NCBI GenBank assembly: GCA_031553435.1
Contig: JAVBLQ010000033.1
Location: 846 to 64,845, forward strand
Length of the DNA: 64,000 nucleotides
Direction of reading: 5' to 3'
DNA from: Bacteroidales bacterium
GTDB lineage: Bacteria; Bacteroidota; Bacteroidia; Bacteroidales; Azobacteroidaceae
Shown here in pieces: positions 47-60,755 of the stretch. Each line of letters begins with the position of its first letter. The stretch's first letter is position 1. The notes beneath the pieces are model-generated. The model ran no database searches. It saw only the letters and a program-made list of their open reading frames with translations, and was not told the DNA's origin. A program made the position numbers and the translations under genes.

Positions 47-121
47 ACTGAAAATGGAAAATTGAAAGTTGAAAATGAGGCTTGCGCACGACAAAATCAT
101 TTTCCATTTTCAATTCATTTT
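47..121. repeat. intergenic hairpin element, GAAAATG/GAAAATT word family, loop GCTTGCGCAC
   Basis: Arms about 59-78 and 97-116 are imperfectly complementary (gaattgaaaatggaaaatga type words). The loop holds GCTTGCGCAC at 80-89. The right arm overlaps the GH28 stop codon (115-117, minus strand). Confidence 0.7.
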
Positions 122-1515
122 GCATGTGTCGGAATCTTAGCCTCTTCCCCTAACACCACATTGTTCATCACAATATTGTATGCATTGGTGATGCTTAGTG
201 CATTCTTTACCGTGTCAATTTTCACATTTGAAAAATAAATATCGTGTACAGGCTTTTCCGGAAAACCTTGAACAACAATTCCGGCAGCAGAAGCTTTCCG
301 GCAAGTAAGGCTATCGACATAGATATTGCTGATATCCGTGCTGTGGCCTTGTCCTTCGCCATGATAATAAGATGTGATGAAAAAACAATCTTCCACATCT
401 CCGAATGACACATTATTGACATAAATATCACGGATAAATCCTCCACGGTCAGCATTTGATTTAAGATAAATGCCTCGTTTGCAATATCCCCCAAAACTGC
501 AATTTTCTATAAATACATTACGTACTCCGGCCGACATTTCACTGCCGATAACTACTCCATGCAAACCTTTGAATTTACAATTACGGATGATGATGTTTTC
601 GGAAGGCATAGCCGTTGCACGTCCTTCATCATCCCTGCCTGCTTTGATGGCTACATTATCATCACCATTATCGAAATTCATATCTTCGATCAGCACATTC
701 TTACAATATTCCGGATCGATACCGTCATTATTAATGTTTTTGGCGATAAAATTAACAGCACGAACCGTAGCATTCTCACATTTAAGCAGATGCACACACC
801 AAAAAGGAGAGTTGGTGATTGTTACACCTTGTATCAGAATATTTTTTGTTTCGATCAATTGCAGCAATTGCGGACGGAGATAATCGCCTTTTCCGAATAT
901 ACGATCTTTAATCGGAACGTTTTTATGATTCATTTCGCGCGAACGGGCTTGCGCTTCACTTTGAAGTTCTTTTCCCGTAGCCTCATTGATCATGCGCCAT
1001 TTACTGAAAGTTCCGGAAGCATTTCCATTGATGGTTCCTTCTCCTATAATCGACACATTTTCAAGTCTGTAACCATAAATGAGAGGACTATAATTATAAA
1101 GCATTGTTCCTTCCCAACTGCTGAGCACAGCAGGCAAGTATTGATCCGGATCGGAAGCAAATTTAAGTGTCGCTCCTTTTTGCAGTTCAAGACAAATATT
1201 ACTTGCCAGATGAAGAGGCCCGTCGATAAAATAAATTCCCGGAGGAACAACAATATGCACACCATTCTTTTCTTTTGTCAAAGCAATAGCCTTTTCAAAT
1301 GCCGGTTTACAATTTGTGACCGAATCACCGGTAGCTCCGAGCGTATCGACAGAAACTTTATATTCGGGAATGGCAGGAGCCTTGATATTTTTCAGGATGG
1401 CATCACGCATTTCTTCCCGGGTGAGTTGTTTATCTGCTTTTTCTTCGGTGCATGAAAAGAAAGCAAAACTCAACAGTAATATGGAAAAGAAGATTTTTTT
1501 CATATAATGAAACAT
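115..1515 (-). CDS. glycoside hydrolase family 28 (polygalacturonase-like), probable lipoprotein
   Basis: 466-aa ORF with GH28 signature blocks NNDGIDPE, GDDNVAIKAG, GLHGVVIGSE and RGIYLKS. N-terminal signal ends in FFSC. Alternative start is M5 at 1503. Confidence 0.85.
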   Translation of the reverse strand: MFHYMKKIFFSILLLSFAFFSCTEEKADKQLTREEMRDAILKNIKAPAIPEYKVSVDTLGATGDSVTNCKPAFEKAIALTKEKNGVHIVVPPGIYFIDGPLHLASNICLELQKGATLKFASDPDQYLPAVLSSWEGTMLYNYSPLIYGYRLENVSIIGEGTINGNASGTFSKWRMINEATGKELQSEAQARSREMNHKNVPIKDRIFGKGDYLRPQLLQLIETKNILIQGVTITNSPFWCVHLLKCENATVRAVNFIAKNINNDGIDPEYCKNVLIEDMNFDNGDDNVAIKAGRDDEGRATAMPSENIIIRNCKFKGLHGVVIGSEMSAGVRNVFIENCSFGGYCKRGIYLKSNADRGGFIRDIYVNNVSFGDVEDCFFITSYYHGEGQGHSTDISNIYVDSLTCRKASAAGIVVQGFPEKPVHDIYFSNVKIDTVKNALSITNAYNIVMNNVVLGEEAKIPTHAK

Positions 1516-1589
1516 TTTAGCTTACAACTTGTTTTGAATTCAATGCAAAATTAAGAACAAATATATACATATTCTATATTCAAAAGTAT

Positions 1590-1597
1590 TACATTTG
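1590..1597 (+). promoter_or_regulatory. candidate Bacteroidetes -7 promoter box TACATTTG (TAnnTTTG)
   Basis: Exact match to TAnnTTTG, about 87 nt upstream of the 1684 start. Confidence 0.35.
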
Positions 1598-1618
1598 CAG
1601 TTTAAAAGAATTGATAGT

Positions 1619-1660
1619 GGACAATTGATAACAATTTTGCCGAAAAATTGTCAATTATCC
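1619..1660. repeat. 42-nt imperfect palindrome, GACAATTG word family
   Basis: ggacaattgataacaattttgccgaaaaattgtcaattatcc. Core stem is acaatttt/aaaattgt around loop gccg. Lies in the divergent region between GH28 (-) and mlaE-like (+). Confidence 0.55.
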
Positions 1661-1683
1661 ATTGCTATTGTCAACTGTAGAAA

Positions 1684-9285: not shown

Positions 9286-9321
9286 GGAACTGATTAAATT
9301 TTGTAACAACCTATTTATCTA

Positions 9322-9436
9322 GTGAAAGGTGAAGATCGCTTCGCTCTTTTGTGAACTCGTTTCACTTGTTGAGAAGAGATGATAAATAAAATTCATCTTT
9401 CACAGGAGATCGAAGTGAGCTTCACTTTTCACTTTT
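9322..9436. repeat. ~110-bp palindromic repeat, GTGAAG-TCGCTTCGC family, copy 2 of 4
   Basis: gtgaaaggtgaagatcgcttcgctcttttgtgaactcgtttcac...ctttcacaggagatcgaagtgagcttcacttttcac. Lies between convergent genes, so it may act as a bidirectional terminator. Confidence 0.8.
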
Positions 9437-16627: not shown

Positions 16628-17956
16628 TTACAACGCAGGCAAATTCATTCCAGTAATTTTTCTGTATAAATCCAATGCATACACATCAGTCATCCCTGAA
16701 ACATAGTCAATTATAGATTGTACCTGACCATAAGTGGTCGATGTGTCAAATTCATATTGTTCAGGAATTCTTCTTAATAATAAATCGGAATATACTTTGG
16801 ACGGAGATTGCGTTGCTTCAATCAAAGTATCTAACAAAAAACCGATGATACGATAACCGGCCAGTTCAATATCCAATACATCCTTCGAACGATAAATTTT
16901 TTTGTATGCTGTCCGGGAACATTGTTCATATGCTTTTTTAGGTATTTCACTGATACATTTAATCAATGATCCTTCAAAAGTTCCCTGCAAAATAGATCGT
17001 TCGTTTTCCAAAAACACCCGGCTACATCCATCGATCAACAAACCTATAACCGAGGAACGAAGGTATGCTATTTTTTCATTGATATCATTAACAAAAGACA
17101 TTACCTGTTGGATATGTTCTTTTTTCTTTTCTCCGAAAAAACCAAGAAAGAGATGAATAGTTTCTTCTGTTGACAAAAGTTTAAGTTTGTGTGCATCTTC
17201 CAGATCCATCACCTGATAACAAATATCATCGGCAGCTTCCACCAGATAGACCAAGGGATATCGCACAAAACGTAAAGGGTTATCGGATAAACAAATAAGG
17301 CCTAACTCTATAGCTATTTTACGATAATCATCCTCTTCGGAAGCAAAAAAACCGAATTTACCCTTCTTACCACAAAGTTCTGACGAATAAGGATATTTGA
17401 CGATGGATGCCAATGTAGAATAAGTCATGGCAAATCCGCCTTTTCTCCGGCCTTTGAATTGATGTGTTAACAAACGGATGGAATTGGCATTCCCTTCAAA
17501 ATGAACGAAATCGGTATATCTGGCTCCTTCCTCTTTTAATTTATCCAATAAATTTTTTCCTTTTCCTTCGGAAAAAAAAGTAGCAATTGCCTGTTCTCCG
17601 GAATGTCCGAAAGGAGGATTTCCCAGATCATGAGCCAGACATGCAGCCGAAACTATAGCTCCCATTTCCAGAAAAGGAGCATCCACAGACGGATTTTGCC
17701 TGAATAATTCGCGACCGATTTTGTCTCCCAATGAACGTCCCACACATGCAACTTCTAAACTATGAGTCAATCTGTTATGAACAAATATACTCCCCGGAAG
17801 CGGAAATACCTGTGTTTTATTCTGCAATCGCCGGAAAGGAGATGAAAAGATCAAACGATCATAATCCCGTTGAAAATCAGTTCGATCATGTTTTCTTATG
17901 TCATGATATTCTTCCATTCCGAATCGCTTAGAAGAAAGAAGTTGTTGCCAGTTCAT
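16628..17956 (-). CDS. dgt: dGTP triphosphohydrolase (HD domain)
   Basis: 442 aa. Blocks RTDFQRDYDRLIFSSPFRRLQNKTQV, HNRLTHSLEV and HDLGNPPFGH are typical of Dgt-family dNTPases. Confidence 0.85.
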   Translation of the reverse strand: MNWQQLLSSKRFGMEEYHDIRKHDRTDFQRDYDRLIFSSPFRRLQNKTQVFPLPGSIFVHNRLTHSLEVACVGRSLGDKIGRELFRQNPSVDAPFLEMGAIVSAACLAHDLGNPPFGHSGEQAIATFFSEGKGKNLLDKLKEEGARYTDFVHFEGNANSIRLLTHQFKGRRKGGFAMTYSTLASIVKYPYSSELCGKKGKFGFFASEEDDYRKIAIELGLICLSDNPLRFVRYPLVYLVEAADDICYQVMDLEDAHKLKLLSTEETIHLFLGFFGEKKKEHIQQVMSFVNDINEKIAYLRSSVIGLLIDGCSRVFLENERSILQGTFEGSLIKCISEIPKKAYEQCSRTAYKKIYRSKDVLDIELAGYRIIGFLLDTLIEATQSPSKVYSDLLLRRIPEQYEFDTSTTYGQVQSIIDYVSGMTDVYALDLYRKITGMNLPAL

Positions 17957-18003
17957 ATTATCAAATGCTTATTAATCATCAACAAAGATACTATGATTTC
18001 TTT

Positions 18004-18068
18004 AATTGAAAATGGACAATTGAAAATGAGAAGTGATTTTCGTGCGCAAGCAATCATTTTCCATTTTG
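18004..18068. repeat. intergenic hairpin element, GAAAATG word family, loop GCTTGCGCAC (minus strand)
   Basis: aattgaaaatggacaattgaaaatgag...cgtgcgcaagca...atcattttccattttg. The reverse complement aligns with the element at 47-121, including the identical 10-mer at 18042-18051. Lies in the divergent region between dgt and cbpA. Confidence 0.75.
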
Positions 18069-18125
18069 TGAACGTTTATGGCGTTCAAACGTTATACCTT
18101 TATAGGGTTCAAACGAAAAAATGTT

Positions 18126-19016: not shown

Positions 19017-19044
19017 GTTGAAGTCTTAAATTAAGAAATCGATG

Positions 19045-19082
19045 TGAACATTTTTTGGTACGCGGTGCACCCAAAACATTCA
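19045..19082. repeat. minimal 38-nt version of the GTGCACC-family element
   Basis: tgaacattttttgg-tacgc-ggtgcac-ccaaaacattca. It shares both termini (TGAACAyTTTTGG / CCAAAACATTCA) with the 125-nt element at 60631-60755 but carries a single GTGCAC word. Confidence 0.55.
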
Positions 19083-19108
19083 TATCGGTCACAATAAAAA
19101 GCATAATT

Positions 19109-21973: not shown

Positions 21974-22049
21974 AAAAATTAACAATTAAGAATGAAAAAT
22001 GGGACTTGCACCTGACAATTCATTTTTCATTCTTAATTGTTAATTTTTT
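21974..22049 (+). terminator. long near-perfect hairpin plus T-run (AATTAAGAATGAAAAATG words), loop ACTTGCACCT
   Basis: aaaaattaacaattaagaatgaaaaatg pairs with ttcatttttcattcttaattgttaattttt (about 28 bp), followed by ttttttt. Lies 12 nt after the CE15 stop. Confidence 0.75.
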
Positions 22050-27207: not shown

Positions 27208-29115
27208 ATGAAAAAGAATCACATTTTATCGTTAGGCCTTGTCCTGATCATGTTATCATTTATTGCTATGAGTTGCAAAAACTCCAAGCCGGAAGTTGTA
27301 AAGATCCCAATGGAAGATTTTTTCAAAAATCCTGAAAAATCATCTTATTCTATTTCTCCCGATGGGAAATATTATTCTTACAAAGCTCCGTATAATCAAC
27401 GGATGAATATTTTTGTTCAGGAAATCGGTAAAGATTCGGCCATCCGTGTTACATCCGAAACAGAACGGGATGTTGCCGGTTATTTCTGGGCTAATAATAG
27501 CCGGATTCTTTTTGTGAAAGATACAGGAGGAGATGAAAATTTTCAACTGTATGGCGTGAATGCTGACGGCAGTGACATGAAAGCTTTGACGGCTTTCCCC
27601 AAAGTCAGAACAATGATTATTGACGATTTACCTGATATTGAAGAAGAAGTGATTATCGGTCTGAATAAACGCAATCCTCAGGTATTCGATCCCTATCGTT
27701 TGAATATTGTTACAGGAGAAATGACTATGCTTGCCGAAAATCCGGGGAATATACAAGGTTGGATGACCGATCACGATGGTAAACTTCGTGTGGCGATTGC
27801 ACTCGATGGCGTAAATACAAGTTTGCTGTATAGAGATAATGAAACTGATCCATTCAAAACTATTATTACCACCAGTTTCAAAGAAACTTTGAGTCCCTAT
27901 TTTTTTACATTTGATAATCAAAGACTTTATGCCGCTTCTAATATCGGAAGAGATAAAGAAGCTCTGGTTGAATTTGATCCTAAAACAGGAAAAGAAGTTT
28001 CAGTATTGTATGAAAATGATACTTACGATATTTCGGGCGCCAGTTATTCCCGTAAAGACAAAAAATTACAAGCAGTTTCTTTTATTTCCCATCAAAAAAG
28101 GGAACGTCATTTCTTTGATGAAAATTTCAAAATTATGTTTGATAAACTGGCTACAAAACTGCCTGGAGTTGAATTTGGTCTTTCTTCCAATACAAAAGAT
28201 GAAAATAAATATATTGTAGTTGCTTACAGCGATAAGTCTATGGGAACATATTATGTTTATGATGTAACCACAGACAATTTGTCGAAGATAGCGGATATTG
28301 CTCCCTGGCTGGATCAATCTATGATGGCAGATATGAATTGTGTAGAATATAAATCCCGTGACGGATTGAGAATCGAAGCTTATCTGACTTTGCCCAAAGG
28401 ATATACGATGGAGAATGCCAAAAATCTTCCGGTTGTTGTAAATCCACATGGCGGACCTTGGGCGCGCGATGATTGGGGATATTCTTCCGAAGTGCAATTC
28501 CTGGCCAACAGAGGTTATGCTGTTTTCCAAATGAATTTCAGAGGATCTACCGGTTATGGTAAAAAATTCTGGGAAACTTCTTTCAAAGAATGGGGAAAAA
28601 CTATGCAAAATGATATTACCGATGGCGTAAACTGGTTGATTGAAAAAGGAATAGCCGATCCTAAGAAAGTTGCAATTTATGGAGGAAGCTACGGCGGGTA
28701 TGCCACTTTGGCGGGAATGACTTTCACACCGGATCTGTATGCCTGTGGAATCGATTATGTAGGTGTGTCTAATTTGTTTACATTCCTGAATACAATACCT
28801 CCTTACTGGAAACCCATGCTGGACATGATGTATGAAATGGTAGGAGATCCGAAGGCCGACAGCACATTGCTGGCCAGTGCTTCTCCTGTATTCCATGCCG
28901 ATCAGATCAAAGCGCCGTTGTTTATTGCACAGGGAGCAAACGATCCACGTGTGAATAAAGACGAATCGGATCAAATGGTGGAAGCATTGAAGAAAAGAGG
29001 TGTTCAGGTCGAATATATGGTCAAAGATAATGAAGGCCACGGCTTCCACAACGAAGAAAACAGGTTTGATTTCTATCGTGCGATGGAAGCGTTTTTGGAG
29101 AAAAACCTGAAGTGA
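27208..29115 (+). CDS. S9-family serine peptidase (prolyl oligopeptidase / dipeptidyl aminopeptidase type)
   Basis: Signal or lipoprotein N-terminus (SC), beta-propeller half, then catalytic GGSYGGY, GANDPRV and EGHGF blocks. Confidence 0.85.
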   Translation: MKKNHILSLGLVLIMLSFIAMSCKNSKPEVVKIPMEDFFKNPEKSSYSISPDGKYYSYKAPYNQRMNIFVQEIGKDSAIRVTSETERDVAGYFWANNSRILFVKDTGGDENFQLYGVNADGSDMKALTAFPKVRTMIIDDLPDIEEEVIIGLNKRNPQVFDPYRLNIVTGEMTMLAENPGNIQGWMTDHDGKLRVAIALDGVNTSLLYRDNETDPFKTIITTSFKETLSPYFFTFDNQRLYAASNIGRDKEALVEFDPKTGKEVSVLYENDTYDISGASYSRKDKKLQAVSFISHQKRERHFFDENFKIMFDKLATKLPGVEFGLSSNTKDENKYIVVAYSDKSMGTYYVYDVTTDNLSKIADIAPWLDQSMMADMNCVEYKSRDGLRIEAYLTLPKGYTMENAKNLPVVVNPHGGPWARDDWGYSSEVQFLANRGYAVFQMNFRGSTGYGKKFWETSFKEWGKTMQNDITDGVNWLIEKGIADPKKVAIYGGSYGGYATLAGMTFTPDLYACGIDYVGVSNLFTFLNTIPPYWKPMLDMMYEMVGDPKADSTLLASASPVFHADQIKAPLFIAQGANDPRVNKDESDQMVEALKKRGVQVEYMVKDNEGHGFHNEENRFDFYRAMEAFLEKNLK

Positions 29116-29220
29116 ATTGAGAAAGTGAAGAGTGAAGAGTGAAGAATTAAAATTGACTTTGTCAATTTTATTTTATCATGCGTAAGCAAAATTCTTCACT
29201 CTTCATTCTTCACTCTCAAT
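29116..29220. repeat. intergenic hairpin element, GTGAAGA word family, with nested inner hairpin and loop GCTTACGCAT (minus strand)
   Basis: attgagaaagtgaagagtgaagagtgaagaat pairs with attcttcactcttcattcttcactctcaat. The loop contains a perfect 9-bp hairpin aaaattgac-ttt-gtcaatttt (29149-29169) and atgcgtaagc (29178-29187). Lies between convergent genes and starts 1 nt after the S9 stop. Confidence 0.85.
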
Positions 29221-30193
29221 CACTCCATCCAAACGGATGCCTCGCTAGCGGTAATTTCGCCAACGGATGATAATCTCCCTTTAATCCGACTGGTTTTGCA
29301 TGGCGGATATCATGTACAATGTTGATGGCGTTGCGGGCATCTTCGATTCTAAAGCCTTCTCCGGATAGGATACCTTTATAACTTTCTGTGTGTAGTTCTG
29401 TAAATCCTTCGCTGAATTCAAAACTCTCTCCATCGATGGTGATGGTGCGGTAAGTCCGTTTTTCGCCTTGTACGGCATTCTCCGGAAGAGAGTCTGCATT
29501 GATGCTTAAAAAATAACGTACCCTAGCCTGATCCAACTCCATAAAACCAGCTACCCGGTCATGCGAACTGATATGTACGATATTCTCCTTAACATTCCCG
29601 AATATCCAGGAAAGCATATCATAAAAATGAATGCCGATGTTGGTAGCCACACCTCCGCTTTTATGAACGTCTCCTTTCCAGCTGGTGTAGTACCAATGTC
29701 CTCTTGAAGTAATATAAGTCAGATCAATATCATAGACTTTATCTTTGGGCCCGGATTCAATTTTCTTTTTCAGATCGATGATGGCTTGGTGTAAACGAAG
29801 TTGAAGGATTGTATAAATTCTTTTTCCTGTTTCTTTTTCCACATCTTTCAGGAAATCAATATTCCAGGGATTCAATACCAATGGTTTTTCACAAATTACA
29901 TCACAACCCAGGCGTAAACCGTAACGCATGTGAGCGTCGTGTAAATAATTCGGAGTACAAATAGATACAAAATCGATTTGTCGATTTGTTCCTTTTAGTT
30001 TTGTACAATGCCGGTCGAACAACTCCAGTTCTACAAAAAAAGAACTTTCCGGAAAAAAGCTGTCCAGGATTCCTACACTATCGAATTTATCATAAGCGGC
30101 AACCAAATGGTTTCCGGTGTCTTTGATAGCTCGTAAATGACGGGGAGCAATATAACCGGCAGAACCGATAAGAGCGAAATTTTTCATTTCCAT
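29216..30193 (-). CDS. Gfo/Idh/MocA-family oxidoreductase, WbpB-like
   Basis: 325 aa. N-terminus MKNFALIGSAGYIAPRHLRAIKDTGN, plus ICEKPL and GVATNIGIHFYDML blocks, resemble WbpB-type sugar-nucleotide 3-dehydrogenases. The start abuts the uxuA stop with no gap. Confidence 0.7.
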   Translation of the reverse strand: MEMKNFALIGSAGYIAPRHLRAIKDTGNHLVAAYDKFDSVGILDSFFPESSFFVELELFDRHCTKLKGTNRQIDFVSICTPNYLHDAHMRYGLRLGCDVICEKPLVLNPWNIDFLKDVEKETGKRIYTILQLRLHQAIIDLKKKIESGPKDKVYDIDLTYITSRGHWYYTSWKGDVHKSGGVATNIGIHFYDMLSWIFGNVKENIVHISSHDRVAGFMELDQARVRYFLSINADSLPENAVQGEKRTYRTITIDGESFEFSEGFTELHTESYKGILSGEGFRIEDARNAINIVHDIRHAKPVGLKGDYHPLAKLPLARHPFGWSD

Positions 30194-31693: not shown

Positions 31694-32245
31694 ATGATAA
31701 AAACACATTCTCAATCAACTCTCAGTGGTCAAATCAGCGAGTCCGTGTGCGTACACAGTTCCCATTGCTATCAATGCGGGAAGTGTTCGGCGGGTTGTCC
31801 TTTGGCTCAGGATATGGATTACACGTCAAGTATGGTAATGCGGATGTTACAGGTAGAAGATGAGGCTATTGACAAAGAACTGCTTCAGTCACAGTCAATC
31901 TGGCTTTGTGCTTCCTGCGAAATGTGCATATCCCGTTGTCCGATGTCTGTCGACATACCAAAAATAATGGATTTTCTTCGTCAGAAATCTATTGAAAAAG
32001 GACTGCAAAATAAAAATGCAGCGAAAAATATCATACCTTTTCATCGTTCTTTTCTGGATATGATCCGTCTCACCGGTCGTTCTTATGAAATCGGATTAGT
32101 GGCTGATTATAAACTTCGAAGCAAAAATCTGTTTCAGGATTTGACATTGGCTCCTAAAATGTTTTTGAAAGGAAAATTGTCACTCATCCCGGAAAATGTG
32201 AAGGACAAGAAGAATATATCAATGATTTTTAAAAAGACTAAATAG
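31694..32245 (+). CDS. hdrC: heterodisulfide reductase subunit C-like (2x[4Fe-4S])
   Basis: 183 aa with two ferredoxin motifs, CYQCGKCSAGCP and CASCEMCISRCP. Confidence 0.8.
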   Translation: MIKTHSQSTLSGQISESVCVHSSHCYQCGKCSAGCPLAQDMDYTSSMVMRMLQVEDEAIDKELLQSQSIWLCASCEMCISRCPMSVDIPKIMDFLRQKSIEKGLQNKNAAKNIIPFHRSFLDMIRLTGRSYEIGLVADYKLRSKNLFQDLTLAPKMFLKGKLSLIPENVKDKKNISMIFKKTK

Positions 32246-32329
32246 TTTTACGTTTTGTGTTTTACGTTATACGTTGGCTTACGCACAACAAAACGTAAAA
32301 CGTAAAACGTAAAACGTACCACGTATAAC
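32245..32329. repeat. intercistronic hairpin element, AAACGT word family, loop GCTTACGCAC
   Basis: gttttacgttttgtgttttacgttatacgt / aaaacgtaaaacgtaaaacgtaaaacgtaccacgtataac, with the loop motif at 32277-32286. Confidence 0.85.
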
Positions 32330-35280: not shown

Positions 35281-35357
35281 CAATGTGACAATATGCCAAT
35301 GTGCCAATTTTTTGCGTATTAATTTGACTTATTGGCATATTAGCATATTGGCAAATT
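35281..35357. repeat. intercistronic hairpin element, ATATGCCAAT word family
   Basis: Left 18-mer atatgccaatgtgccaat (35291-35308) pairs with attggcatattagcatattggcaa (35331-35354). Starts 3 nt after the hdrA stop and ends 9 nt before the next start. Confidence 0.85.
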
Positions 35358-37791: not shown

Positions 37792-38637
37792 ATGATTATG
37801 GACGAAAGAAATATATATTTACCTTATAAAATGCGCCTGGCCAAAGTAACAGAAGAAGCGCCCGGCGTCCGCACTTTCCGTTTGGAATTTATGAATCCGG
37901 AAGAAGGAGAAAACTTCAATTTCCGTACCGGACAATTTGCCGAATATTCAGTATTTGGAGAAGGAGAATCAACTTTTTGTATCGCATCTCCACATACCCG
38001 TAAAGGTTATGTAGAATGTACTTTCCGTAGGGCAGGACGGGTGACTTCGGCTTTGTCCAATCTGGAAGAAGGTGCAGTTGTCGGTTTTCGCGGCCCATAT
38101 GGTAATACTTTCCCTATTGATGAATGGAAAGGTAAAAATCTGGTTTTCATTGCCGGAGGAATCGCTTTGCCACCGATGCGCAGCGTAATCTGGTCATGTC
38201 TGGATAATCGTGAGAATTACAAAGATGTAACCATTTTCTATGGAGCGAAAACGGTTGCGGACTTAGTATATAAAGACGAATTGAAAGACTGGGAAGAACG
38301 TCCTGACGTAAATCTTTACACAACAGTTGATCCGGGTGGAGAAACTCCCGATTGGAAAGGTCAGGTAGGATTCGTGCCCATGATCGTGGAAAAATTTGCT
38401 CCTGTAGCCGAAAATACAATTGTTATTGTTTGCGGCCCTCCAATCATGATCAAGAATACTTTCCCTGTATTGAAGAAATTAGGATTTACAGACGAAAACA
38501 TTTATACTACTCTCGAAAACCGGATGAAATGCGGATTCGGGAAATGCGGCAGATGCAATGTCGGAAAAACTTACGTTTGTAAGGACGGACCGGTGTTTAC
38601 TGCTGCGGAATTGGCAGAGCTACCTAACGAATACTAA
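37792..38637 (+). CDS. FAD/NAD(P)-binding oxidoreductase with C-terminal [2Fe-2S] (AsrB/HydG/FlxA/PyrK-like)
   Basis: 281 aa. Ferredoxin-reductase fold (RTGQFAEYS, FIAGGIALPP) and C-terminal CGFGKCGRCNVG cluster motif. Alternative start at 37798. Confidence 0.75.
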   Translation: MIMDERNIYLPYKMRLAKVTEEAPGVRTFRLEFMNPEEGENFNFRTGQFAEYSVFGEGESTFCIASPHTRKGYVECTFRRAGRVTSALSNLEEGAVVGFRGPYGNTFPIDEWKGKNLVFIAGGIALPPMRSVIWSCLDNRENYKDVTIFYGAKTVADLVYKDELKDWEERPDVNLYTTVDPGGETPDWKGQVGFVPMIVEKFAPVAENTIVIVCGPPIMIKNTFPVLKKLGFTDENIYTTLENRMKCGFGKCGRCNVGKTYVCKDGPVFTAAELAELPNEY

Positions 38638-38640
38638 AAA

Positions 38641-38717
38641 GAAAGTGAAAAGTGAAAAATTAAAAGTGAGCTTACGCCCAAAATAACTTTTCACTTTTCA
38701 CTTTCTTTTTCACTTTC
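38641..38717. repeat. intergenic hairpin element, GTGAAAA word family, loop GCTTACGCCC
   Basis: gaaagtgaaaagtgaaaaattaaaagtgag pairs with ttttcacttttcactttctttttcactttc. Loop motif at 38670-38679. Lies between convergent genes and overlaps the stop of the 38710 esterase gene. Confidence 0.85.
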
Positions 38718-42027: not shown

Positions 42028-42246
42028 GTAACGATATATGTGTTAAAAAAGATGAATTTGAACAATATGACTATTTTACCTTAAAAGATTCAAATCTACA
42101 AACAAACCAAATCAATCAATGTAAATTCCGTACGCTTTTAAGTTCATATTGTACGATAACTACAAATAAAAAGTTAAAATGAGAATTCCGTACAAAAGTG
42201 CTATTATTCGGTAAAATTTTTACATTATTTTTTTGGATATACGGCA

Positions 42247-42254
42247 TATCTTTG
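42247..42254 (+). promoter_or_regulatory. candidate -7 promoter box TATCTTTG
   Basis: TAnnTTTG match 36 nt upstream of the ATG at 42290. Confidence 0.35.
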
Positions 42255-42289
42255 AGCATCTTTGTCACCAATTTGTTAACTGTAACCAC

Positions 42290-45200
42290 ATGATTTTAAG
42301 ATACATATTATTATTAACCATTATTATTGTCGTAAGTCACCTTTCCTTTTCCCAGGAAATTCATTTTCAAAAAATAGATGCAGAAGACGGATTGTCGCAA
42401 TCAACTGTTACATCCATTTATCAGGATGAATTCGGTATCATGTGGATTGGAACCAAAGATGGATTGAACAGGTATAGCGGAGACGATTTCCAGGTGTTCA
42501 GACCTATAACCGGAAACAAAAACAGTATTTTCAATAACAATATCGGTACGGTATGCGGCGACCGGAATGGCCATATTTATGTGCGTTGCAAATTTGCCGC
42601 CGTTGAATATGATATGCGCCTGAATATTTTCCATACCATTCAGGAAAATAATGTTCAAACCATTTCCTACGGATTAAACCGGCTGTGGATCTGTACTTCC
42701 GATTCGATATATTCTTATGATAGCAAGGGAAAGAAGAAACAATTTTACTATGCATTTCCTGAAAAGAAAATAAAAATTACCTGTATTCTGGAAAACAGTA
42801 ATAAAGAAATTTATGTCGGCACGCAAAATTCAGGGCTGTTTATTATCGACGGAAATAAAAAACGATTGAATTACCTGCCGGGAGTGCATATCATTCAGAT
42901 TTACGAAGACTCGAAACGAAATATGTGGATTTCCACCAGAGACGACGGGTTGATTAAAATGGACCGGAACGGAGAATTTGTTAACTACAAAAATGATCCT
43001 CAGGACAAAAATTCTATTTCAGACAACTACACCCGCGCCGTTTGTGAAGATAATTTCGGAAATTACTGGATCGCTACTTTCAAAGGTTTGAATAAGTTGG
43101 ATCTTTCAACCGGAAAAATTACCTATTATCAAAAGGAAAACAAGCCTTACAGTCTGGTTAATTCGTCCTTGATCTGTATCACCAAAGATCAGCAAGGCTC
43201 TTTGTGGATAGGTTCTTATCATGGTGGAATCAATATTTTTAATCCGGAATATGAAATCTATAATTATTATTATCCGGACGAATCGATTCCCGGAAAATTG
43301 AGTTCTCCCTTTGTGGTGCGAATGCAGGAAGACGAAAAAGGCAACCTCTGGATCGCAACCGAAGGCGGCGGATTGAATTATCTGGACAGGGAAACCAAAC
43401 ATTTCACGGTTTATCGACATCAGTCGCAGTCCAACTCCATATCAACCAATAATATACAAGGTTTGTATCTTGATCGCAACAGAAATGCACTTTGGATAGG
43501 AACTTTATTGGGAGGTTTGGATAAGCTGGACCTGAAATCGAAAAAATTCACCAATTACCATCATATCAGCGGTGACAAAGAATCATTGGTCAATAATAAT
43601 GTCAGGAAAATAATTCCGTATAAAGACAGCCTGTTACTGAGCACCCATAACGGAATTGTAATGTTCAAGCCCGAAAATGGGAAATGCCGCAGATTGTTTG
43701 ATAAGCCCCAATTCGACTACCGGTTTATCATCGATATGATTGTAGACGGAGATAATAATTTATGGTTTTCTTATTCTCTCGGACTCATTAAATATAACCT
43801 TGAAACAGGTGTACTTAAAGAATATCTGGCAGCAGACATCCCTATTGGAAACAATCTGGTCAATGTTATTTTCCAGGACAGGGAAAAACGCATCTGGATC
43901 GGCTCTTCCGGCGACGGTATTTTTTTATACGAGCCTCAACATGATAAATTCAAACCGTATAATTCCGGTAATTCCGATTTGATCAATAATTATATTCTGG
44001 ATATAAAAGAATCATTATCAGGATATTTACTGATCTCGACCAATCAGGGATTTTCCCGTTTCGATATTGAAAACGGAAAATTTTACAATTACAATAAGCA
44101 AAATGGATTTCCGGTGACCGCGTTGAATCCCTATGGTATGTTTGTGACTTCCAACAATCAGATTTTCCTGTCCGGAACCAAAATGATGATTTCGTTCAAT
44201 GAAAAAGAACTGAATTCGAATGTCAAGCCCTGTCAGGTCAATTTTATATCGATGGAACTCAACAATAAGCTGATTGTTCCGAATGATGATTCCGGCATTT
44301 TGTCCGAATCATTATTATATCAATCGACTATCCAATTGAATCATAAACATTCGGTTATGAGCATCAATTTATCACTGCCGGATTATGTTTCCCTGCTCAA
44401 AAACAAAATATATTACAAACTGGAAGGTTTTGATAATACGTGGACTGACATCAACTACCGTAACAGAATTATTTACACCAATTTAAGTCCCGGAAAATAT
44501 AAGCTTGTTATCAAAAGTGTAGATGAAAATTCTTCCAACGACAGGATCCTCAAAGAATTAAATATCATCGTAACACCGCCGTTTTACAGGACATGGACGG
44601 CTTACGGACTGTATTTATTTATCCTTGTCATTTCTATTTATTTGATTGCATCTTTTTATTCTTCCAAATTGAAACTGAGAAACTCATTGGATCTGGAAAA
44701 GAAGGAAAAAATACAGATTGAGAAAATCAATCAATCCAAACTTCGCTTTTTTACCAATATATCTCATGAATTCAGAACTCCTTTAACATTAATCATCAGT
44801 CAATTAGAAATGTTGATCGAAAGAAACGACATCAAACCGCAGGTTTACAACAGACTGGTGAATGTACACCGTAACGCCATCCGCATGAAACGCCTGATTA
44901 CGGAATTACTGGATTTCCGCAAACAGGAACAAGGATTTAAAGAACTGAAATTCAGTAAACAGAACATCTATCTTTTTCTCGAAGAAGTTTATTTGTCATT
45001 CAAAGAATATGCACGTTTCAGAGAGATTAACCTTGAGTTCCTGAACAAAGATTCTTTTCTGGAAGTCTGGTTTGATGTGGAACAAATGGAAAAATCCGTT
45101 AATAATATTCTGTCCAATGCATTCAAATATACACCACAGAAAGGAACAATCGCCATCTCTGTCGAAATAGATAATCACAACGTATATATCCGTATTTCAG

Positions 45201-46294
45201 ATACCGGAATCGGTATTCCGGCCGATAAACTGAACCAGATTTTCGATCGTTTTTATCAGGTGGATGATAATTATACTACCGGGACCGGACTGGGTCTGGC
45301 CATTACAAAAGAGATTATCACCGCCCATCATGGAGAAATCAGGGTGAACAGCGAAGTGGAAAAAGGAACCACATTCCTGATCCGCCTTCCCTTGGGAGAT
45401 CAGCATATCCTGGATTCGCAAAAAGTACCGGCAAGGAATGTAGACATGTCGTGCATCGAAGAATTATCCATGAATCAGGATATTAATTTCTCTGAAGATA
45501 TTGAAAACAATGAAAACGAAGAAGATAAAACAAAGTCCAAAATATTGATTGTAGAAGATAACAGAGAATTAGTAGAACTTCTGAATCGTTTATTTTCATC
45601 CGTCTACGAAGTTCATACAGCCTTTGATGGAGAAGAAGGTCTGGAAAAAGCCAAAGAAATACAACCGAATATCATTTTAAGCGATATCATGATGCCTAAA
45701 ATGTCAGGCATCGAAATGTGTCGCAAGATCAAAGATAATTTTGATACCTGTCACATCCCCGTCATTCTCTTGACTGCCCAAAATTCGGAAGAATACTTGA
45801 TTGAAGGCTTGAAAATGAGCGCCGACGATTATATCACTAAACCATTCAATGTAAAACATTTGTTCACCCGATGCAACAATCTGTTGAACAACAGAAAATT
45901 ACTACAAAAGAAATATGCAAAACTTTCAGACTCCAACCCGGATACACTGGCAACAAACAGTTACGATCAACAGTTCCTGACCCAATGTATCCAGATTATA
46001 GAAAACAACATCAGCGATATTGATTTTGATGTCAACCAGTTTGCCCAGGAAATAGGACTGGGAAGAACCAAACTCTTTTTGAAAATAAAAGGCATCACCG
46101 GCTTAACTCCGAATGACTTTATTCTCAATGTCCGCCTGAAAAAATCACAAGTATTATTGGAAGAACCCGGAGAAAGAACCATTTCGGAAATTGCCTACGA
46201 CGTAGGATTCAATTCCCCCAGTTATTTCATCAAACGATTCAGGGAGCTGTATGGGGTGACGCCTTCGCAGTTCAAGAAAAAAGTGAAAAACTAA
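42290..46294 (+). CDS. hybrid two-component system sensor/regulator (HTCS)
   Basis: About 1334 aa. Periplasmic beta-propeller repeats (GLSQSTV, WIGT motifs) and a Y_Y_Y region, a TM helix, H-box FFTNISHEFRTPLTL, ATPase G-boxes, receiver ILIVEDN...SDIMMP, and AraC HTH SPSYFIKRFRELYGVTPSQF. The ORF track start 42233 is a TTG and is rejected. Confidence 0.9.
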   Translation: MILRYILLLTIIIVVSHLSFSQEIHFQKIDAEDGLSQSTVTSIYQDEFGIMWIGTKDGLNRYSGDDFQVFRPITGNKNSIFNNNIGTVCGDRNGHIYVRCKFAAVEYDMRLNIFHTIQENNVQTISYGLNRLWICTSDSIYSYDSKGKKKQFYYAFPEKKIKITCILENSNKEIYVGTQNSGLFIIDGNKKRLNYLPGVHIIQIYEDSKRNMWISTRDDGLIKMDRNGEFVNYKNDPQDKNSISDNYTRAVCEDNFGNYWIATFKGLNKLDLSTGKITYYQKENKPYSLVNSSLICITKDQQGSLWIGSYHGGINIFNPEYEIYNYYYPDESIPGKLSSPFVVRMQEDEKGNLWIATEGGGLNYLDRETKHFTVYRHQSQSNSISTNNIQGLYLDRNRNALWIGTLLGGLDKLDLKSKKFTNYHHISGDKESLVNNNVRKIIPYKDSLLLSTHNGIVMFKPENGKCRRLFDKPQFDYRFIIDMIVDGDNNLWFSYSLGLIKYNLETGVLKEYLAADIPIGNNLVNVIFQDREKRIWIGSSGDGIFLYEPQHDKFKPYNSGNSDLINNYILDIKESLSGYLLISTNQGFSRFDIENGKFYNYNKQNGFPVTALNPYGMFVTSNNQIFLSGTKMMISFNEKELNSNVKPCQVNFISMELNNKLIVPNDDSGILSESLLYQSTIQLNHKHSVMSINLSLPDYVSLLKNKIYYKLEGFDNTWTDINYRNRIIYTNLSPGKYKLVIKSVDENSSNDRILKELNIIVTPPFYRTWTAYGLYLFILVISIYLIASFYSSKLKLRNSLDLEKKEKIQIEKINQSKLRFFTNISHEFRTPLTLIISQLEMLIERNDIKPQVYNRLVNVHRNAIRMKRLITELLDFRKQEQGFKELKFSKQNIYLFLEEVYLSFKEYARFREINLEFLNKDSFLEVWFDVEQMEKSVNNILSNAFKYTPQKGTIAISVEIDNHNVYIRISDTGIGIPADKLNQIFDRFYQVDDNYTTGTGLGLAITKEIITAHHGEIRVNSEVEKGTTFLIRLPLGDQHILDSQKVPARNVDMSCIEELSMNQDINFSEDIENNENEEDKTKSKILIVEDNRELVELLNRLFSSVYEVHTAFDGEEGLEKAKEIQPNIILSDIMMPKMSGIEMCRKIKDNFDTCHIPVILLTAQNSEEYLIEGLKMSADDYITKPFNVKHLFTRCNNLLNNRKLLQKKYAKLSDSNPDTLATNSYDQQFLTQCIQIIENNISDIDFDVNQFAQEIGLGRTKLFLKIKGITGLTPNDFILNVRLKKSQVLLEEPGERTISEIAYDVGFNSPSYFIKRFRELYGVTPSQFKKKVKN

Positions 46295-46363
46295 AAACTA
46301 AAAGTGAAAAGTAAATTGTTATGCGCAAGTCCAACTTTTCACTTCTCACTTTTAGTTTTTCAC
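46278..46363. repeat. intergenic hairpin element, GTGAAAA/CTAAAAA word family, loop ACTTGCGCAT (minus strand)
   Basis: aaaaagtgaaaaactaaaaactaaaagtgaaaagt pairs with ttttcacttctcacttttagtttttcac. The HTCS stop (46292-46294) lies inside the left arm. Confidence 0.85.
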
Positions 46364-46425
46364 TCCATTGTACGAAATTAATGCTTTTCCGTATGATTCT
46401 GATATGCTTTTGGGGACGTCATTTT

Positions 46426-51208: not shown

Positions 51209-51312
51209 GGTGAAGGGGTCGCTTCGCTCCTGTGAACTCACTTCGTTCGTTGTGAAGGTTTCACTGTAAACGAAGTGAATTTCACAGGAGCGAAGCGACT
51301 TTCACCTTTCAC
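51209..51312. repeat. ~110-bp palindromic repeat, GTGAAG-TCGCTTCGC family, copy 4 of 4
   Basis: ggtgaaggggtcgcttcgctcctgtgaactcacttcgttcgttgtgaaggtttcactgtaaacgaagtgaatttcacaggagcgaagcgactttcacctttcac. Lies inside the PUL operon between SusD and the next gene. Confidence 0.85.
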
Positions 51313-55237: not shown

Positions 55238-55320
55238 AACACTGAACACACGGATTACACGGAGAGTCACAGAAATATAATATTCCGCGAAACTCCGTGT
55301 ACTCCGCGTATTCCGCGTTC
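55237..55320. repeat. intercistronic hairpin element, ACACGGA/TACGCGGA word family
   Basis: gaacactgaacacacggattacacggag is about 70 percent complementary to ctccgtgtactccgcgtattccgcgttc. Begins at the upstream stop codon. Confidence 0.65.
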
Positions 55321-55338
55321 TATTCAAATACAAAAATC

Positions 55339-58393: not shown

Positions 58394-58454
58394 AAAATTT
58401 ACGCCTGTCGTAAGAAAATTTACGCCTGTCGTAGCAAAATTTACGCCTGTCGTA
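58394..58454. repeat. 3 x 21-bp tandem direct repeat AAAATTTACGCCTGTCGTA
   Basis: Identical 19-mers at 58394, 58415 and 58436, each holding the inverted pair TTACG-N5-CGTAA. A degenerate fourth copy, aaaatttacttgcaat, sits at 58475. Confidence 0.85.
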
Positions 58455-58506
58455 AATTTTTCCACAAACGGATGAAAATTTACTTGCAATAATATTGAAA
58501 TTGATA

Positions 58507-58557
58507 TGAACATTTTTGAGGGCACCGTGTACCGTGTACCGTGCACCTTTGCACCTA
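58507..58557. repeat. half element of the GTGCACC/GTGTACC word family
   Basis: tgaacatttttgagggcaccgtgtaccgtgtaccgtgcacctttgcaccta. It shares the terminus TGAACAyTTTTG and the word array with 60631-60755, but I found no complementary arm nearby. Confidence 0.6.
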
Positions 58558-58606
58558 AAAGATTCATATCGGCACTATATAAAACAACACAAACTAATTT
58601 TCAACC

Positions 58607-60622
58607 ATGCTAAAAAATATATCCATCCCAATCAAACCATTACTGATTCTCCTGCTTATAGGACTCGGTAATACGGCATATGCTGAAAATCATGTGATTG
58701 AACTACCCAAATGTATCAGTTCGCACATGGTGCTTCAGCGCGAAACGCCTGTAAAGTTGTGGGGATGGGGAACGCCCGGAGATACGATTATCGTGGAATT
58801 AACCAGACAAGGCCAGATCTTCAAAGACTCCGTCAAAGTAGATGAAAACAAACGTTGGCTCATCAGGTTGCCAGCTCAACCGGTATGTAGTGAAGCCTGT
58901 AAGCTGAAATTCCATATCAAAGGCCATCCGGAAATCACACAGACACTGGATGATATACTGATTGGAGATGTTTGGTTCGCCGGAGGCCAGTCTAACATGG
59001 AGAAAAAAGTGAACTATATGCTCGAAACAGGACAATATACACAGGAAGCCGACAATTATCCGCAAATCCGTTCGTTCAGGGCGAGCTATTATCCGCAAAC
59101 AAGCCCTCAGGAAAGAGTCAACAGCGCATCAGGTACCTGGTTTGTGTGCAACAGTACGGAAATTGCAGATAAAGTCTCTGCCGTAGCCTATGTTTATGCC
59201 CGTAGTTTATATGAAAATCTCAATATTCCGATAGGCATCATGCAATCATACCGGGGAGGAACGGAAATCGAGACATGGATGAGCCCCGGGATATTCAATG
59301 ATCCCGAATTATGTAAAATAGCGGGACGCAAAGCATATATAACTCCGGGAACCGCATCCCAGGATCATTCCCTTCATTTTAACGGACAAATCAATCCCCT
59401 GCTCAATTTCCCTATCAAAGGTTTTATTTTCTATCAGGGAGAAAGCAATATCAAACGGGCGCTGGAATATCGTTTCATGATGAGAAAACTGATTGAAGAT
59501 TGGAGAAACCTCTGGGGAATGGGCGATTTGCCTTTTTATTATGTCCAATTGCCTAATATTTATGCAACTTCTTCATACGACGAATCCAACTGGCCGGACT
59601 GCCGCGAACAACAAGCATTGCTTTTGTCTGACTATGTGGCAAACCTTGGTATGGCCGTTACAATCGACACCAATGATGAAGCGCTTAATCCGGACAACAA
59701 CATCAATATCCATCCGCATAATAAAAAACCGGTGGGAGAAAGACTTGCCCGTATTGCATTGAAAAACACATACCATTTCGATATCCTTGCCGAAGGACCT
59801 GCCGTGAACCGTTATGAATTTTCCGGCAATTCCGTTTATCTGTATTTCAAAAATTATGGCGACGGATTAAAAATAAAAGCAGGAGAAAGCTCCCTCAAAG
59901 GTTTTATCATCAGCGGAAGCGATAAAAAATTCTATACGGCAACCGCAACAATACATGATGACAGTACTGTCGTGGTCAGTAGCAGTTCCGTTTCCAGTCC
60001 GGTAGCCGTACGCTATGACTGGGCAAGGAATCCCATAGGTAATTTGTATAATTCCATTGATATACCGGCAACACCGTTCAGAACAGATATCTGGAAATCG
60101 AAGTTTACCTATACATCTTTCCAGTCTTCCTGTACTTCAAAAAGTAGTGATGCGGATTTAATGATGATTAAAGTAAACGGGGTAACACTTCCTGACTTCG
60201 ATCCTCAAAAGCTAACTTACAACTATATCCCTGAAAATCAGAATTATCAGGACGTAAGTGCTGTAACCAACAATCCTTTCGCCTCAATCGTCAAAGTAGA
60301 AACAGAAAACAAAGTGACACTGAAAGTAACAGCCGAAAATGGTTCCGTTCAATCATACGAAATCAACTTCAAAAGTCCGACATCTATACCGGAAAACACA
60401 ATCCAATTATTTCATGTTTTTCAGGAAAACAAAAAGATAATCATACAAAACAACTCAGGCAAACAACATCAGATCAAAATATATAATCACAACGGACAGC
60501 ATATTATCTCTGATAAAATAAAAGAAAATGAGCAGAAGACTTATACTTTGCCACTTGGTGTTTATATTATCGATTGGATAAATAGCGGGCAAAGCAATAG
60601 CATGAAATTTATTTTGAAGTGA
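58607..60622 (+). CDS. sialate O-acetylesterase-like esterase with cadherin-like domain and T9SS C-terminal sorting domain
   Basis: 671 aa. GDVWFAGGQSNME and FYQGESN blocks (SASA family), a cadherin-like sandwich (DADLMMIKVNGVTLPDFDPQKLTYNY...YEINFK), and a tail ending in GVYIIDWINSGQSNSMKFILK. Confidence 0.7.
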   Translation: MLKNISIPIKPLLILLLIGLGNTAYAENHVIELPKCISSHMVLQRETPVKLWGWGTPGDTIIVELTRQGQIFKDSVKVDENKRWLIRLPAQPVCSEACKLKFHIKGHPEITQTLDDILIGDVWFAGGQSNMEKKVNYMLETGQYTQEADNYPQIRSFRASYYPQTSPQERVNSASGTWFVCNSTEIADKVSAVAYVYARSLYENLNIPIGIMQSYRGGTEIETWMSPGIFNDPELCKIAGRKAYITPGTASQDHSLHFNGQINPLLNFPIKGFIFYQGESNIKRALEYRFMMRKLIEDWRNLWGMGDLPFYYVQLPNIYATSSYDESNWPDCREQQALLLSDYVANLGMAVTIDTNDEALNPDNNINIHPHNKKPVGERLARIALKNTYHFDILAEGPAVNRYEFSGNSVYLYFKNYGDGLKIKAGESSLKGFIISGSDKKFYTATATIHDDSTVVVSSSSVSSPVAVRYDWARNPIGNLYNSIDIPATPFRTDIWKSKFTYTSFQSSCTSKSSDADLMMIKVNGVTLPDFDPQKLTYNYIPENQNYQDVSAVTNNPFASIVKVETENKVTLKVTAENGSVQSYEINFKSPTSIPENTIQLFHVFQENKKIIIQNNSGKQHQIKIYNHNGQHIISDKIKENEQKTYTLPLGVYIIDWINSGQSNSMKFILK

Positions 60623-60630
60623 AATCGGTA

Positions 60631-60755
60631 TGAACACTTTTGGGTGCAAAGGTGCACGGTGCAGGGTGCACGAATTGCTTACGCCTGATAGTGCACTACA
60701 TCTGATAAACCGACCGTGCACCGTGCACCGTGTACCGTGCACCCAAAAACATTCA
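60631..60755. repeat. intercistronic hairpin element, GTGCACC/GTGTACC word family, loop GCTTACGCCT
   Basis: tgaacacttttgggtgcaaaggtgcacggtgcagggtgcacg pairs with cgtgcaccgtgcaccgtgtaccgtgcacccaaaaacattca. Loop motif at 60677-60686. Confidence 0.85.

Follow-up and report, generated by a model that had tools for sequence, protein, structure and literature searches.

We analysed a stretch of 64,000 nucleotides of a Bacteroidales bacterium of the Azobacteroidaceae (assembly GCA_031553435.1, contig JAVBLQ010000033.1, positions 846 to 64,845; here called the window) and found that the 10-mer GCTTRCGCMY, which recurs in the loops of its intergenic hairpins, is the core of a longer apical cassette of 17-25 nt. 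The hairpins that carry it have arms made of tandem 7-8-nt repeats. With about even confidence, we read the cassette as the mark of young copies of an insertional, AT-rich palindromic repeat family, comparable to repetitive extragenic palindromes (REP), miniature inverted-repeat transposable elements (MITE) and short tandemly repeated repetitive sequences (STRR).

The motif lies at the tips of inverted repeats. Six exact GCTTRCGCMY sites were found in the window against 0.31 expected, and none of 100 dinucleotide-preserving shuffles reached six. The original prediction, made from the sequence letters, had listed these 10-mers, and all six were recovered at the same coordinates and on the same strands; the two near-matches were confirmed as degenerate copies (ACTTGCGCAT at 46321 (-) and ACTTGCACCT at 22004 (+)). 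All eight copies, five on the plus strand and three on the minus strand, fall outside coding sequence, within the window's 4.8 kb of intergenic DNA, and each of the eight occupies the apical region of an inverted repeat. In a position-weight scan these sites scored 18-28 bits, while every other site scored 11.8 bits or less and was in coding sequence. A census of the 64 kb returned 19 large hairpins, whose loops add up to 569 nt, equal to 0.9% of the window and 12% of its intergenic DNA. The core CTTRCGC alone is mildly over-represented (13 observed vs 7.1 expected); 6 of the 13 sites are inside large-hairpin loops (binomial estimate about 1e-9), as are 6 of the 7 intergenic ones (about 2e-5). 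In this test, which was run within the 64-kb window, the motif was thus commoner in hairpin loops than in other intergenic DNA, the outcome that had been set beforehand as decisive for the prediction. The eight hairpins are listed below, z comparing each fold with shuffled sequences.

s1, 49..112, motif at 80-89 (+): GAAAATG/GAAAGTT arms, cassette GCTTGCGCAC-GACAAAAT, weak fold (z = -1.5); directly 3' of the stop of a GH28 gene, 115..1515 (-).
s2, 17997..18075, motif at 18042-18051 (-): cassette GCTTGCGCAC-GAAAATCA, fold no better than shuffles (z = -0.4); truncated arms, the left long with GAAAATG/GACAATT repeats and the right short; between the divergent genes 16628..17956 (-) and a dnaJ-like gene starting at about 18126 (+).
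s3, 29110..29225, motif at 29178-29187 (-): GTGAAGA arms at 29124-29148 and 29190-29214, cassette TTGCTTACGCATGATAAAAT, z = -9.3; both convergent genes have stop codons that overlap the outer stem, and the loop contains a small inner hairpin as well.
s4, 32245..32321, motif at 32277-32286 (+): AACGTAA arms, cassette GCTTACGCAC-AACAAAAC, z = -3.6; occupies the whole spacer between genes 1 and 2 of an hdr/mvh-like operon.
s5, 38636..38710, motif at 38670-38679 (+): GTGAAAA arms, 96% complementary, cassette GCTTACGCCC-AAAATAAC, z = -8.2; occupies the 72-nt gap between two convergent stop codons.
s6, 60638..60749, motif at 60677-60686 (+): GGTGCAC arms within an outer stem ATGAACACTTTTGGG/CCCAAAAACATTCA, cassette TTGCTTACGCCTGATA, z = -7.8; related copies that lack the cassette are at 19035-19095 and 58500-58575.
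s7, 46282..46364, motif at 46321-46330 (-): GTGAAAA/CTAAAAA arms, cassette ACTTGCGCAT-AACAATTT, z = -5.7; the left arm contains the stop codon of a hybrid two-component gene, 42233..46294.
s8, 21974..22048, motif at 22004-22013 (+): arms of 28 bp, 100% complementary, with TTAACAA/TTAAGAA/TGAAAAA units, degenerate cassette ACTTGCACCT-GACAATT, z = -9.0; followed by a T-run.

Six of these hairpins fold far better than shuffles (z from -9.3 to -3.6); the exceptions are the weak or truncated hairpins at 80 and 18042. All arms are tandem 7-nt arrays (period 7, in some cases 8, in Tandem Repeats Finder), built from units such as GAAAATG, GTGAAGA, GTGAAAA, AACGTAA, GGTGCAC or TTAAGAA. At least eight different repeat units occur in the 64 kb, set as inverted pairs around the cassette; the stems are AT-rich and 20-40 bp long, and the loops measure 16-49 nt. 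In BLAST comparisons among the elements, the arms of s1 and s2 group with a hairpin at 33185-33261, those of s3, s5 and s7 with each other, and those of s6 with the hairpins at 58500 and 19040; s4 and s8 stand alone. The stems had been described as completely different between families, which holds for two copies only, with AACGTAA (32277) and GGTGCAC (60677); the arms of the other six are related A-rich words, one or two changes away from TGAAAAN (TGAAAAT, GTGAAAA, GTGAAGA, TGAAAAA).

Loops and arms do not share one genealogy. Hairpins s3 and s6 have 15 of 16 loop bases in common (TTGCTTACGCMTGATA) on unrelated arms, the s1/s2 arms recur in the hairpin at 33185-33261, which carries another loop, and the outer stem and heptamers of s6 recur at 58500 and 19040, in both places without the cassette. 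To judge from these alignments, loop and arms behave as separate modules. Eight further hairpins of the window have heptamer or octamer arms and no motif; they belong to the TGCCAATR, GTTACGA and GACAATT families, together with a hairpin at 55234-55323 whose arms are weakly repetitive. One of them, a TGCCAATR-armed hairpin at 35282..35357 in the spacer between operon genes 3 and 4, has a loop that reads AATACGCAAAAAAT on the minus strand; its alignment score with the cassette is 9, a value reached by about 1% of shuffled loops, and this loop is possibly a decayed cassette. No tetranucleotide is shared at the feet of the eight motif hairpins, so that the conservation is apical, and the view that the loop is the informative part of these hairpins was borne out.

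The s6 element belongs to a repeat family in which GGTGCAC heptamers lie within an outer stem GATATGAACATTTTTGGG/CCCAAAAACATTCATATC; its members are at 19035-19095, 58500-58575 and 60625-60760, always upstream of genes. The family occurs in three states: a short one with the loop TACGC, one with a one-sided array, and one with two inverted arrays and the cassette (s6). Another palindrome of REP-like type, GTCGCTTCGCTCCTTTGTGAA ... TTCACAAAGGAGCGAAGCGAC, encloses about 43 nt of loop and has three copies, at 9321-9433, 31376-31486 and 51218-51299; its arms contain GCTTCGC/GCGAAGC, a classic stable mini-hairpin word.

The cassette consists of (GAATK), 0-3 nt, GCTTRCGCAY and GAYAAAAT, and the similarity among copies reaches 17-19 nt. 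The motif begins 2-4 nt from the 5' arm, and another 7-9 bases separate it from the 3' arm. The complementary strand of the core reads GC[GYAA]GC, that is a GCAA or GUAA tetraloop of the GNRA type on a clamp of two pairs, in all 12 cassettes compared, and the opposite strand reads GC[TTRC]GC. The G and both A residues of the GNRA loop are invariant in 12/12, the single variable loop position being the N, and 23 of the 24 closing-pair cells are paired; both degenerate copies retain G-U pairs, on the GNRA strand only. Among the 12 cassettes we found conservation and one-sided changes and no compensatory change in the clamp, and because of this the GNRA fold is consistent with the cassette data but not proven by them.

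The region around the elements is an ordinary Bacteroidales chromosome, with housekeeping genes, a polysaccharide-utilisation locus (PUL) and the hdr/mvh-like operon. The operon (31694-38637) has seven genes, encoding a Fer4 protein, an HdrB-like CCG protein, an HdrA-like protein, MvhD/FlpD, two Fer4 proteins and a PyrK-like protein, and repeat-armed hairpins fill five of its six spacers. The motif hairpins are found between convergent stops (s3, s5), between co-directional gene pairs (s4, s6, s7, s8) and between divergent starts (s2). The stop codons of five genes lie within hairpin arms (29113-29115, 29216-29218, 38635-38637, 38710-38712 and 46292-46294); the elements replaced or supplied the ends of those five reading frames.

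Related Bacteroidales lack the motif in their hairpins. The closest relatives among 185,579 species genomes reach at most 90% protein identity and are mostly Bacteroidales metagenome-assembled genomes (MAGs), several with the label Dysgonamonadaceae or Candidatus Azobacteroides. The gene order of the hdr/mvh-like operon is conserved in dozens of Bacteroidales, and its spacers measure 5-25 nt in many species, compared with 64-89 nt, filled by hairpins, in the window. Some relatives (L002-L006, L010-L012 and L017) have their own heptamer-armed hairpins in the same operon spacers, with an arm vocabulary partly in common with the window; the motif was present in none of the loops of the relatives' heptamer-armed hairpins. 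None of about 168 CTTRCGC sites in about 1.24 Mb from 80 related Bacteroidales was within a strong hairpin, and among 476 weight-matrix hits in about 1.3 Mb only the window copies and the one in L081 were; L081 is a short-read contig of the window's organism. In relatives, the position of s5 behind the last operon gene is taken by a canonical terminator with an A-tract, a GC stem and a T-tract, and canonical terminators are present at orthologous gene ends of relatives generally. The TGCCAATR hairpin of the window (35282) recurs in L003 and L004, where the right arm is conserved and the loops differ; hairpins without the motif can therefore be old. The loops of this orthologous hairpin (window 35309-35330, L003 7668-7745) share TATTA(A)TTTGA only after one of them is reverse-complemented, which hints that arm-to-arm recombination can invert a loop; the shared stretch is AT-rich, and too weak for such a claim.

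Elsewhere the same organism was met only in short Logan contigs of SRR23967707 and SRR23967709. One of these contigs (L082, 1400-1511) ends inside hairpin s3 (window 29080-29260). The s3 copy in L081 (1400-1580) has the same loop as the window copy and two C-to-T differences from it, one affecting the right arm and the other the outer stem immediately past that arm.

Insertion can be followed at one orthologous spacer. In Acetobacteroides the spacer between operon genes 3 and 4 is empty (9-12 nt) in L132 and L138; L135-137 have an unrelated hairpin there, and the MAG L059 has a double cassette element. This is direct evidence for insertion. In L059 the sequence GAATG-GCTTACGCAY occurs twice in this spacer, beside GAAGTTA-type arrays.

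The cassette hairpin occurs in a second phylum. A metagenome scan for exact matches to the 19-nt s1/s2 cassette gave 23 stretches from about 15 independent loci. At fourteen loci no hairpin surrounds the match (score 9 or below), and at one locus, present in four assemblies, a hairpin does (score 19-20). The arms of this hairpin are ATTGCAA heptamers and its loop reads CA-GCTTGCGCAC-GAAAAAT, with a geometry matching that of the window copies; GC content is about 30% in the arms and 63% in the host, a soil bacterium placed by its YbeY homologues in the Roseiflexaceae (Chloroflexota). Since such loops form a tiny fraction of any metagenome, we took this locus as a real second occurrence of the cassette hairpin, on sequence grounds.

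The hairpin stands between dgkA and a glycosyltransferase gene, and the orthologous spacer was recovered from eight lineages. In L110 the left arm is identical to that of L096 at 41/41 positions, the loop at 12/16 (ATGCGCAATC), and the four-fold sites of ybeY are 69% identical; the right arm of L110 shows a concerted T-to-G change in two units. L108 combines the arms of L096 with an unrelated loop; the arms are AATTGAG/AATGTAA in L141 and L142-146 and GGAAATGAA in L112-119. A heptamer hairpin is thus always present at this site, and both arms and loop turn over. Because of these values (arm 41/41, loop 12/16, four-fold sites 69%), the arms appear to be constrained or homogenised and the loop to evolve in a roughly neutral manner; there was no sign of purifying selection on the cassette in the orthologous Roseiflexaceae spacers. 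The proposal that the loop is a recognition site maintained on the hairpin is not supported, and is partly contradicted, by this drift at about the four-fold rate on conserved arms in the L096 series, by the unrelated loops of other orthologues and by the cassettes that L059 carries outside any hairpin.

Two observations were made beside this locus. The glycosyltransferase gene of L096 contains an AT-rich insert (2150-2235) of (GTTTTGA)x4, a spacer and TTAACTC-type units, translated in frame as ...ELRVKNKQTVDNSKLKTQNSKL..., and heptamer arrays can therefore also sit inside coding sequence. Roseiflexaceae also have a separate, abundant palindrome, TGTAYRTCGTTTTTTCGCCC-N4-GGGCGAAAAAACGAYRTACA (L110 93-136, 8720-8763 and 15521-15564; L090 2261-2306; L112 12396-12440), which is probably a REP-like terminator family.

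The elements arise or insert in intergenic spacers, even where the genes of an operon are closely packed; the stop codon of an adjacent gene is often theirs, and related species lack them or have different ones at the same site. In an insertional family, every new copy would be born with the canonical cassette; the loop would drift later, while the arms would stay complementary, homogenised by slippage and by correction of one arm from the other. The eight canonical or near-canonical loops in 64 kb would reflect a recent burst in the window's genome, and relatives would hold older copies with eroded loops. The cassette would be needed by the propagation step, either as a recognition or cleavage site of a putative structure-specific DNA enzyme or as a nucleation point, with the GC-clamped GYAA (GNRA-type) mini-hairpin on one strand opposite GC[TTRC]GC. 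If the hairpins serve the host, as a 3'-end or intercistronic hairpin or a substitute terminator, that role would be secondary and independent of the loop sequence. We infer that the cassette is probably what propagation needs, because different arms carry the same cassette and because a second phylum has it too, as do array junctions that form no hairpin; whether as a recognition or as a nucleation site, such a role in the propagation of the elements is possible.

Several observations weigh against this insertional reading. No target-site duplication or conserved element terminus was recognisable in comparison with empty sites, which come from highly diverged relatives, and none of the approximately 44 window genes is a transposase, HUH/Y1, RAYT or recombinase gene. 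Simple copy-and-paste of one master fails to account for the differing arms of the young copies. The order of young and old copies was deduced from relatives at most 90% identical in protein, the databases holding no closer one, and the copy number is that of the 64-kb window. In L059 the arrays flanking the cassettes are non-complementary and form no hairpin (z = +0.4 and +0.5). Finally, the cross-phylum evidence is a single locus found by an exact-match search and is hence ascertainment-biased.

A broader version of the insertional reading would make the elements a cross-phylum class of mobile or self-propagating palindromes. A putative structure-specific enzyme would recognise or nick the apical cassette on extruded single-stranded hairpins and so seed new copies, and the arms would then be built or rewritten by slippage and fold-back synthesis. 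We regard this version as rather unlikely.

Equally doubtful is the view that the elements are host cis-regulatory RNA hairpins, acting at 3' ends, as intercistronic stabilisers or as terminators, with the apical loop kept by selection, either because C(GYAA)G, an exceptionally stable tetraloop, nucleates the folding of AU-rich stems that are long and slippery, or because the loop is read by an RNA-binding protein or an RNase. Most hairpins do adjoin stop codons, s5 stands in the place of the relatives' canonical bidirectional terminator, and canonical GC-stem/T-run terminators are not in excess in the region (19 found in window positions 20001-40000 vs 17.6 in shuffles). The presence of GC[GYAA]GC in 12/12 cassettes and the G-U pairs kept by degenerate copies on that strand only would fit an RNA as well. 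Orientation speaks against it. The GNRA strand is the sense strand at four loci (L096, L059, s1 and s7) and antisense at three (s4, s6 and s8), convergent and divergent sites being undecidable, and 9 of the 14 hairpins with co-directional flanking genes fold better on the antisense strand. The proposed check of motif strand against the direction of transcription thus shows no bias towards the transcribed strand, and neither G-U content nor folding energy is skewed to the sense strand, so that selection on the sense-strand RNA was rejected. These data lend no support to selection at the mRNA level and fit palindromes that insert or flip either way. An apparent polarity of the purine-rich arms relative to the motif turned out to be an artefact, since palindromes are alike on both strands. 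Moreover, the clamp shows no compensatory changes, half of the window's hairpins and similar ones in relatives lack the motif, the orthologous loop drifts at about the neutral rate, and one copy (s2) lies in a divergent promoter region.

Somewhat less probable still is a cassette of about 20 nt that is itself mobile or exchangeable and is installed at the apex of existing hairpins or at array junctions, by template switching or gene conversion through loop microhomology or by a loop-targeting enzyme. The discordant genealogies of loops and arms (s3/s6; s1/s2 against 33185; s6 against 58500 and 19040) would follow directly, as would a cassette joining two different arrays in L059 and unrelated arms with the same cassette in two phyla. 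However, we know of no mechanism that moves a 20-nt segment alone, and in-situ concerted evolution of the arms, as seen in the succession of ATTGCAA, AATTGAG and GGAAATGAA at one Roseiflexaceae spacer, can give the same discordance; the sample is also small.

Passive shared ancestry, with one founder whose loop had no time to diverge and with no role of the loop in propagation or for the host, seems to us improbable. It would account for the related A-rich heptamers in six of eight arms, for the neutral drift of loops wherever it could be measured and for the confinement of the motif to this lineage among 80 relatives. It does not account for two copies with unrelated arms and near-identical loops, nor for a variable core position that is precisely the free N of a GNRA loop, and the 19-nt identical cassette in Chloroflexota is more than passive descent inside a single genome can produce. 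A chance or compositional artefact of GC-poor loops, for which the mild excess of CTTRCGC alone could be cited, is already refuted by the six 10-mers where 0.31 were expected, by the six of seven intergenic cores in loops that make up 12% of intergenic DNA, and by similarity that reaches 17-19 nt.

Comparison with known systems places the elements near several of them. They resemble REP/BIME, Correia/NEMIS and RPE elements and ERIC-type MITEs in being short, dense, non-coding intergenic palindromes that also enter operon spacers; like these repeats, they occur in either orientation, often adjoin or supply stop codons, and form lineage-specific bursts that break short-read assemblies. Many intergenic copies in both orientations are thus present, but REPs have a conserved foot (a GTAG or CGTC head) and stem, and here that foot is missing, the apex is conserved and the stems vary. 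As regards REPs and MITEs, the arms here are tandem 7-8-nt arrays and not insertion sequence ends, the window has no RAYT or transposase gene, and neither terminal inverted repeats derived from an insertion sequence nor target duplications were seen against the empty sites of strongly diverged relatives.

STRRs are short tandemly repeated repetitive heptanucleotides of heterocystous cyanobacteria, in which heptamer arrays have been known since 1990. They also occur in helix P12 of RNase P RNA (a mention is in PMC2858038). TAACTGA heptamer arrays have been described in Beggiatoaceae, Cyanobacteria and Bacteroidetes (PMC4679880). The present elements share with these arrays tandem intergenic heptamers that are AT-rich relative to the host and a patchy distribution across distant phyla, suggestive of horizontal spread by no known mechanism; as in STRRs, the arrays can lengthen a helix on both arms. 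They differ in that STRR and TAACTGA repeats are described mainly as direct arrays of one of a few fixed heptamers (CCCCAGT, TTGGTCA, TAACTGA), while here many units are set as inverted pairs, and neither a conserved central cassette nor systematic inverted pairing has been reported for them.

Hairpin sites of HUH enzymes or RNA polymerase include the CRESS-DNA nonanucleotide, the pMV158 double-strand origin, the loop hexamer CS-6 of ssoA and the ends of IS200/IS605. Such sites combine a short conserved sequence in or near the loop with a free stem sequence, as in the window but not in L059, where there is no hairpin; the original prediction had taken this type of site as its model. They are, however, single-copy per replicon or element and stand next to their own Rep or TnpA gene, which the window lacks, and the cassette has no sequence match to them (CS-6 is TAGCGT and the CRESS motif TAATATTAC).

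Among known hairpins, the GNRA tetraloops C(GCAA)G and C(GUAA)G, as well as the DNA mini-hairpins d(GCGAAGC) and d(GCGAAAGC), resemble the complement of the core. It has the sequence GC-GYAA-GC, with C-G and G-C closing pairs and G-U in two degenerate copies, but its helix has 2 bp and is asymmetric in a loop of 16-49 nt, without covariation and on a strand that is not preferentially transcribed.

Intrinsic terminators are resembled by the copies that follow stops, have A-tract and T-tract flanks (s5, s8) or take the position of the relatives' terminator. In place of a G+C-rich stem of 5-15 bp, a small loop and a U-tract, the elements have AT-rich repeat stems of 20-40 bp and large loops, with T-runs at s5 and s8 only, and several are inside an operon or a promoter region. 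The original prediction was right that they are not generic terminators, as their position within an operon and a divergent promoter as well as at 3' ends, their AT-rich tandem stems, their absence from or difference in relatives and their modular loops and arms all indicate. A search of Rfam gave no match at gathering scores, and at E <= 5 only spurious microRNA-precursor models on the long hairpins. In the literature (full text), we found no description of this motif or architecture.

Other identities were considered and rejected. As a Bacteroidetes promoter (TTTG / TAnnTTTG), the cassette has no properly spaced -7 element by eye on either strand, and a sigma-70-type scan was at chance. With the XerC arm of dif (GGTGCGCATAA) it shares GTGCGCA only, the central region and the XerD arm being absent. 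Resemblance to a tRNA anticodon loop (CUUACGC/CUUGCGC) was treated as a coincidence, as G at position 37 misfits Val and Ala tRNAs. A small open reading frame starting in the loop (ATG/GTG-CGY-AAG, M-R-K) is contradicted by three of eight copies without a start codon and by differing downstream peptides; matches to the cassette in viral contigs are gene starts of this M-R-K type, with no hairpin. Oriented words such as DNA uptake, Chi or KOPS-type sequences do not fit the mixed orientation within 64 kb.

Not all weaker versions of the motif that had been listed proved to be loops. The one at 19466 is outside any hairpin (z = +0.4). TACGC at 19059 does lie in a loop, but it is only 5 nt long and belongs to a small hairpin of another repeat family. 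The three copies of TTTACGCCTG at 58398-58449 are part of a 21-nt tandem repeat in which TTACG forms the stem and not the loop: at 58394-58455 there are three tandem units AAAATTTACGCCTGTCGTAAG, each with a palindrome TTACG-N5-CGTAA, two helical turns apart, upstream of a PUL gene at 58607. This array looks like a set of regulator binding sites and not like the loop motif.

Small palindromic intergenic repeats are known; our comparisons suggest that what is new here is the conservation of the apex, the periodic arms and the cross-phylum cassette. It is unusual that the apex and not the ends are conserved, that periodic arms are apparently rewritten over time, and that the same apex occurs in a gut-type Bacteroidales MAG and in soil Chloroflexota. 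In practice, annotators should recognise the elements, which split the spacers of operons, provide stop codons and interrupt short-read assemblies. Operon structure, transcript ends and genome assembly are all shaped by REPs, MITEs and STRRs. If propagation works through the cassette, this would offer a concrete sequence with which to find the mechanism, to date bursts of the elements and to link the cyanobacterial heptamer arrays to a process. Should a self-propagating class across phyla prove true, it would explain the origin and the patchy distribution of STRR-type heptamer arrays.

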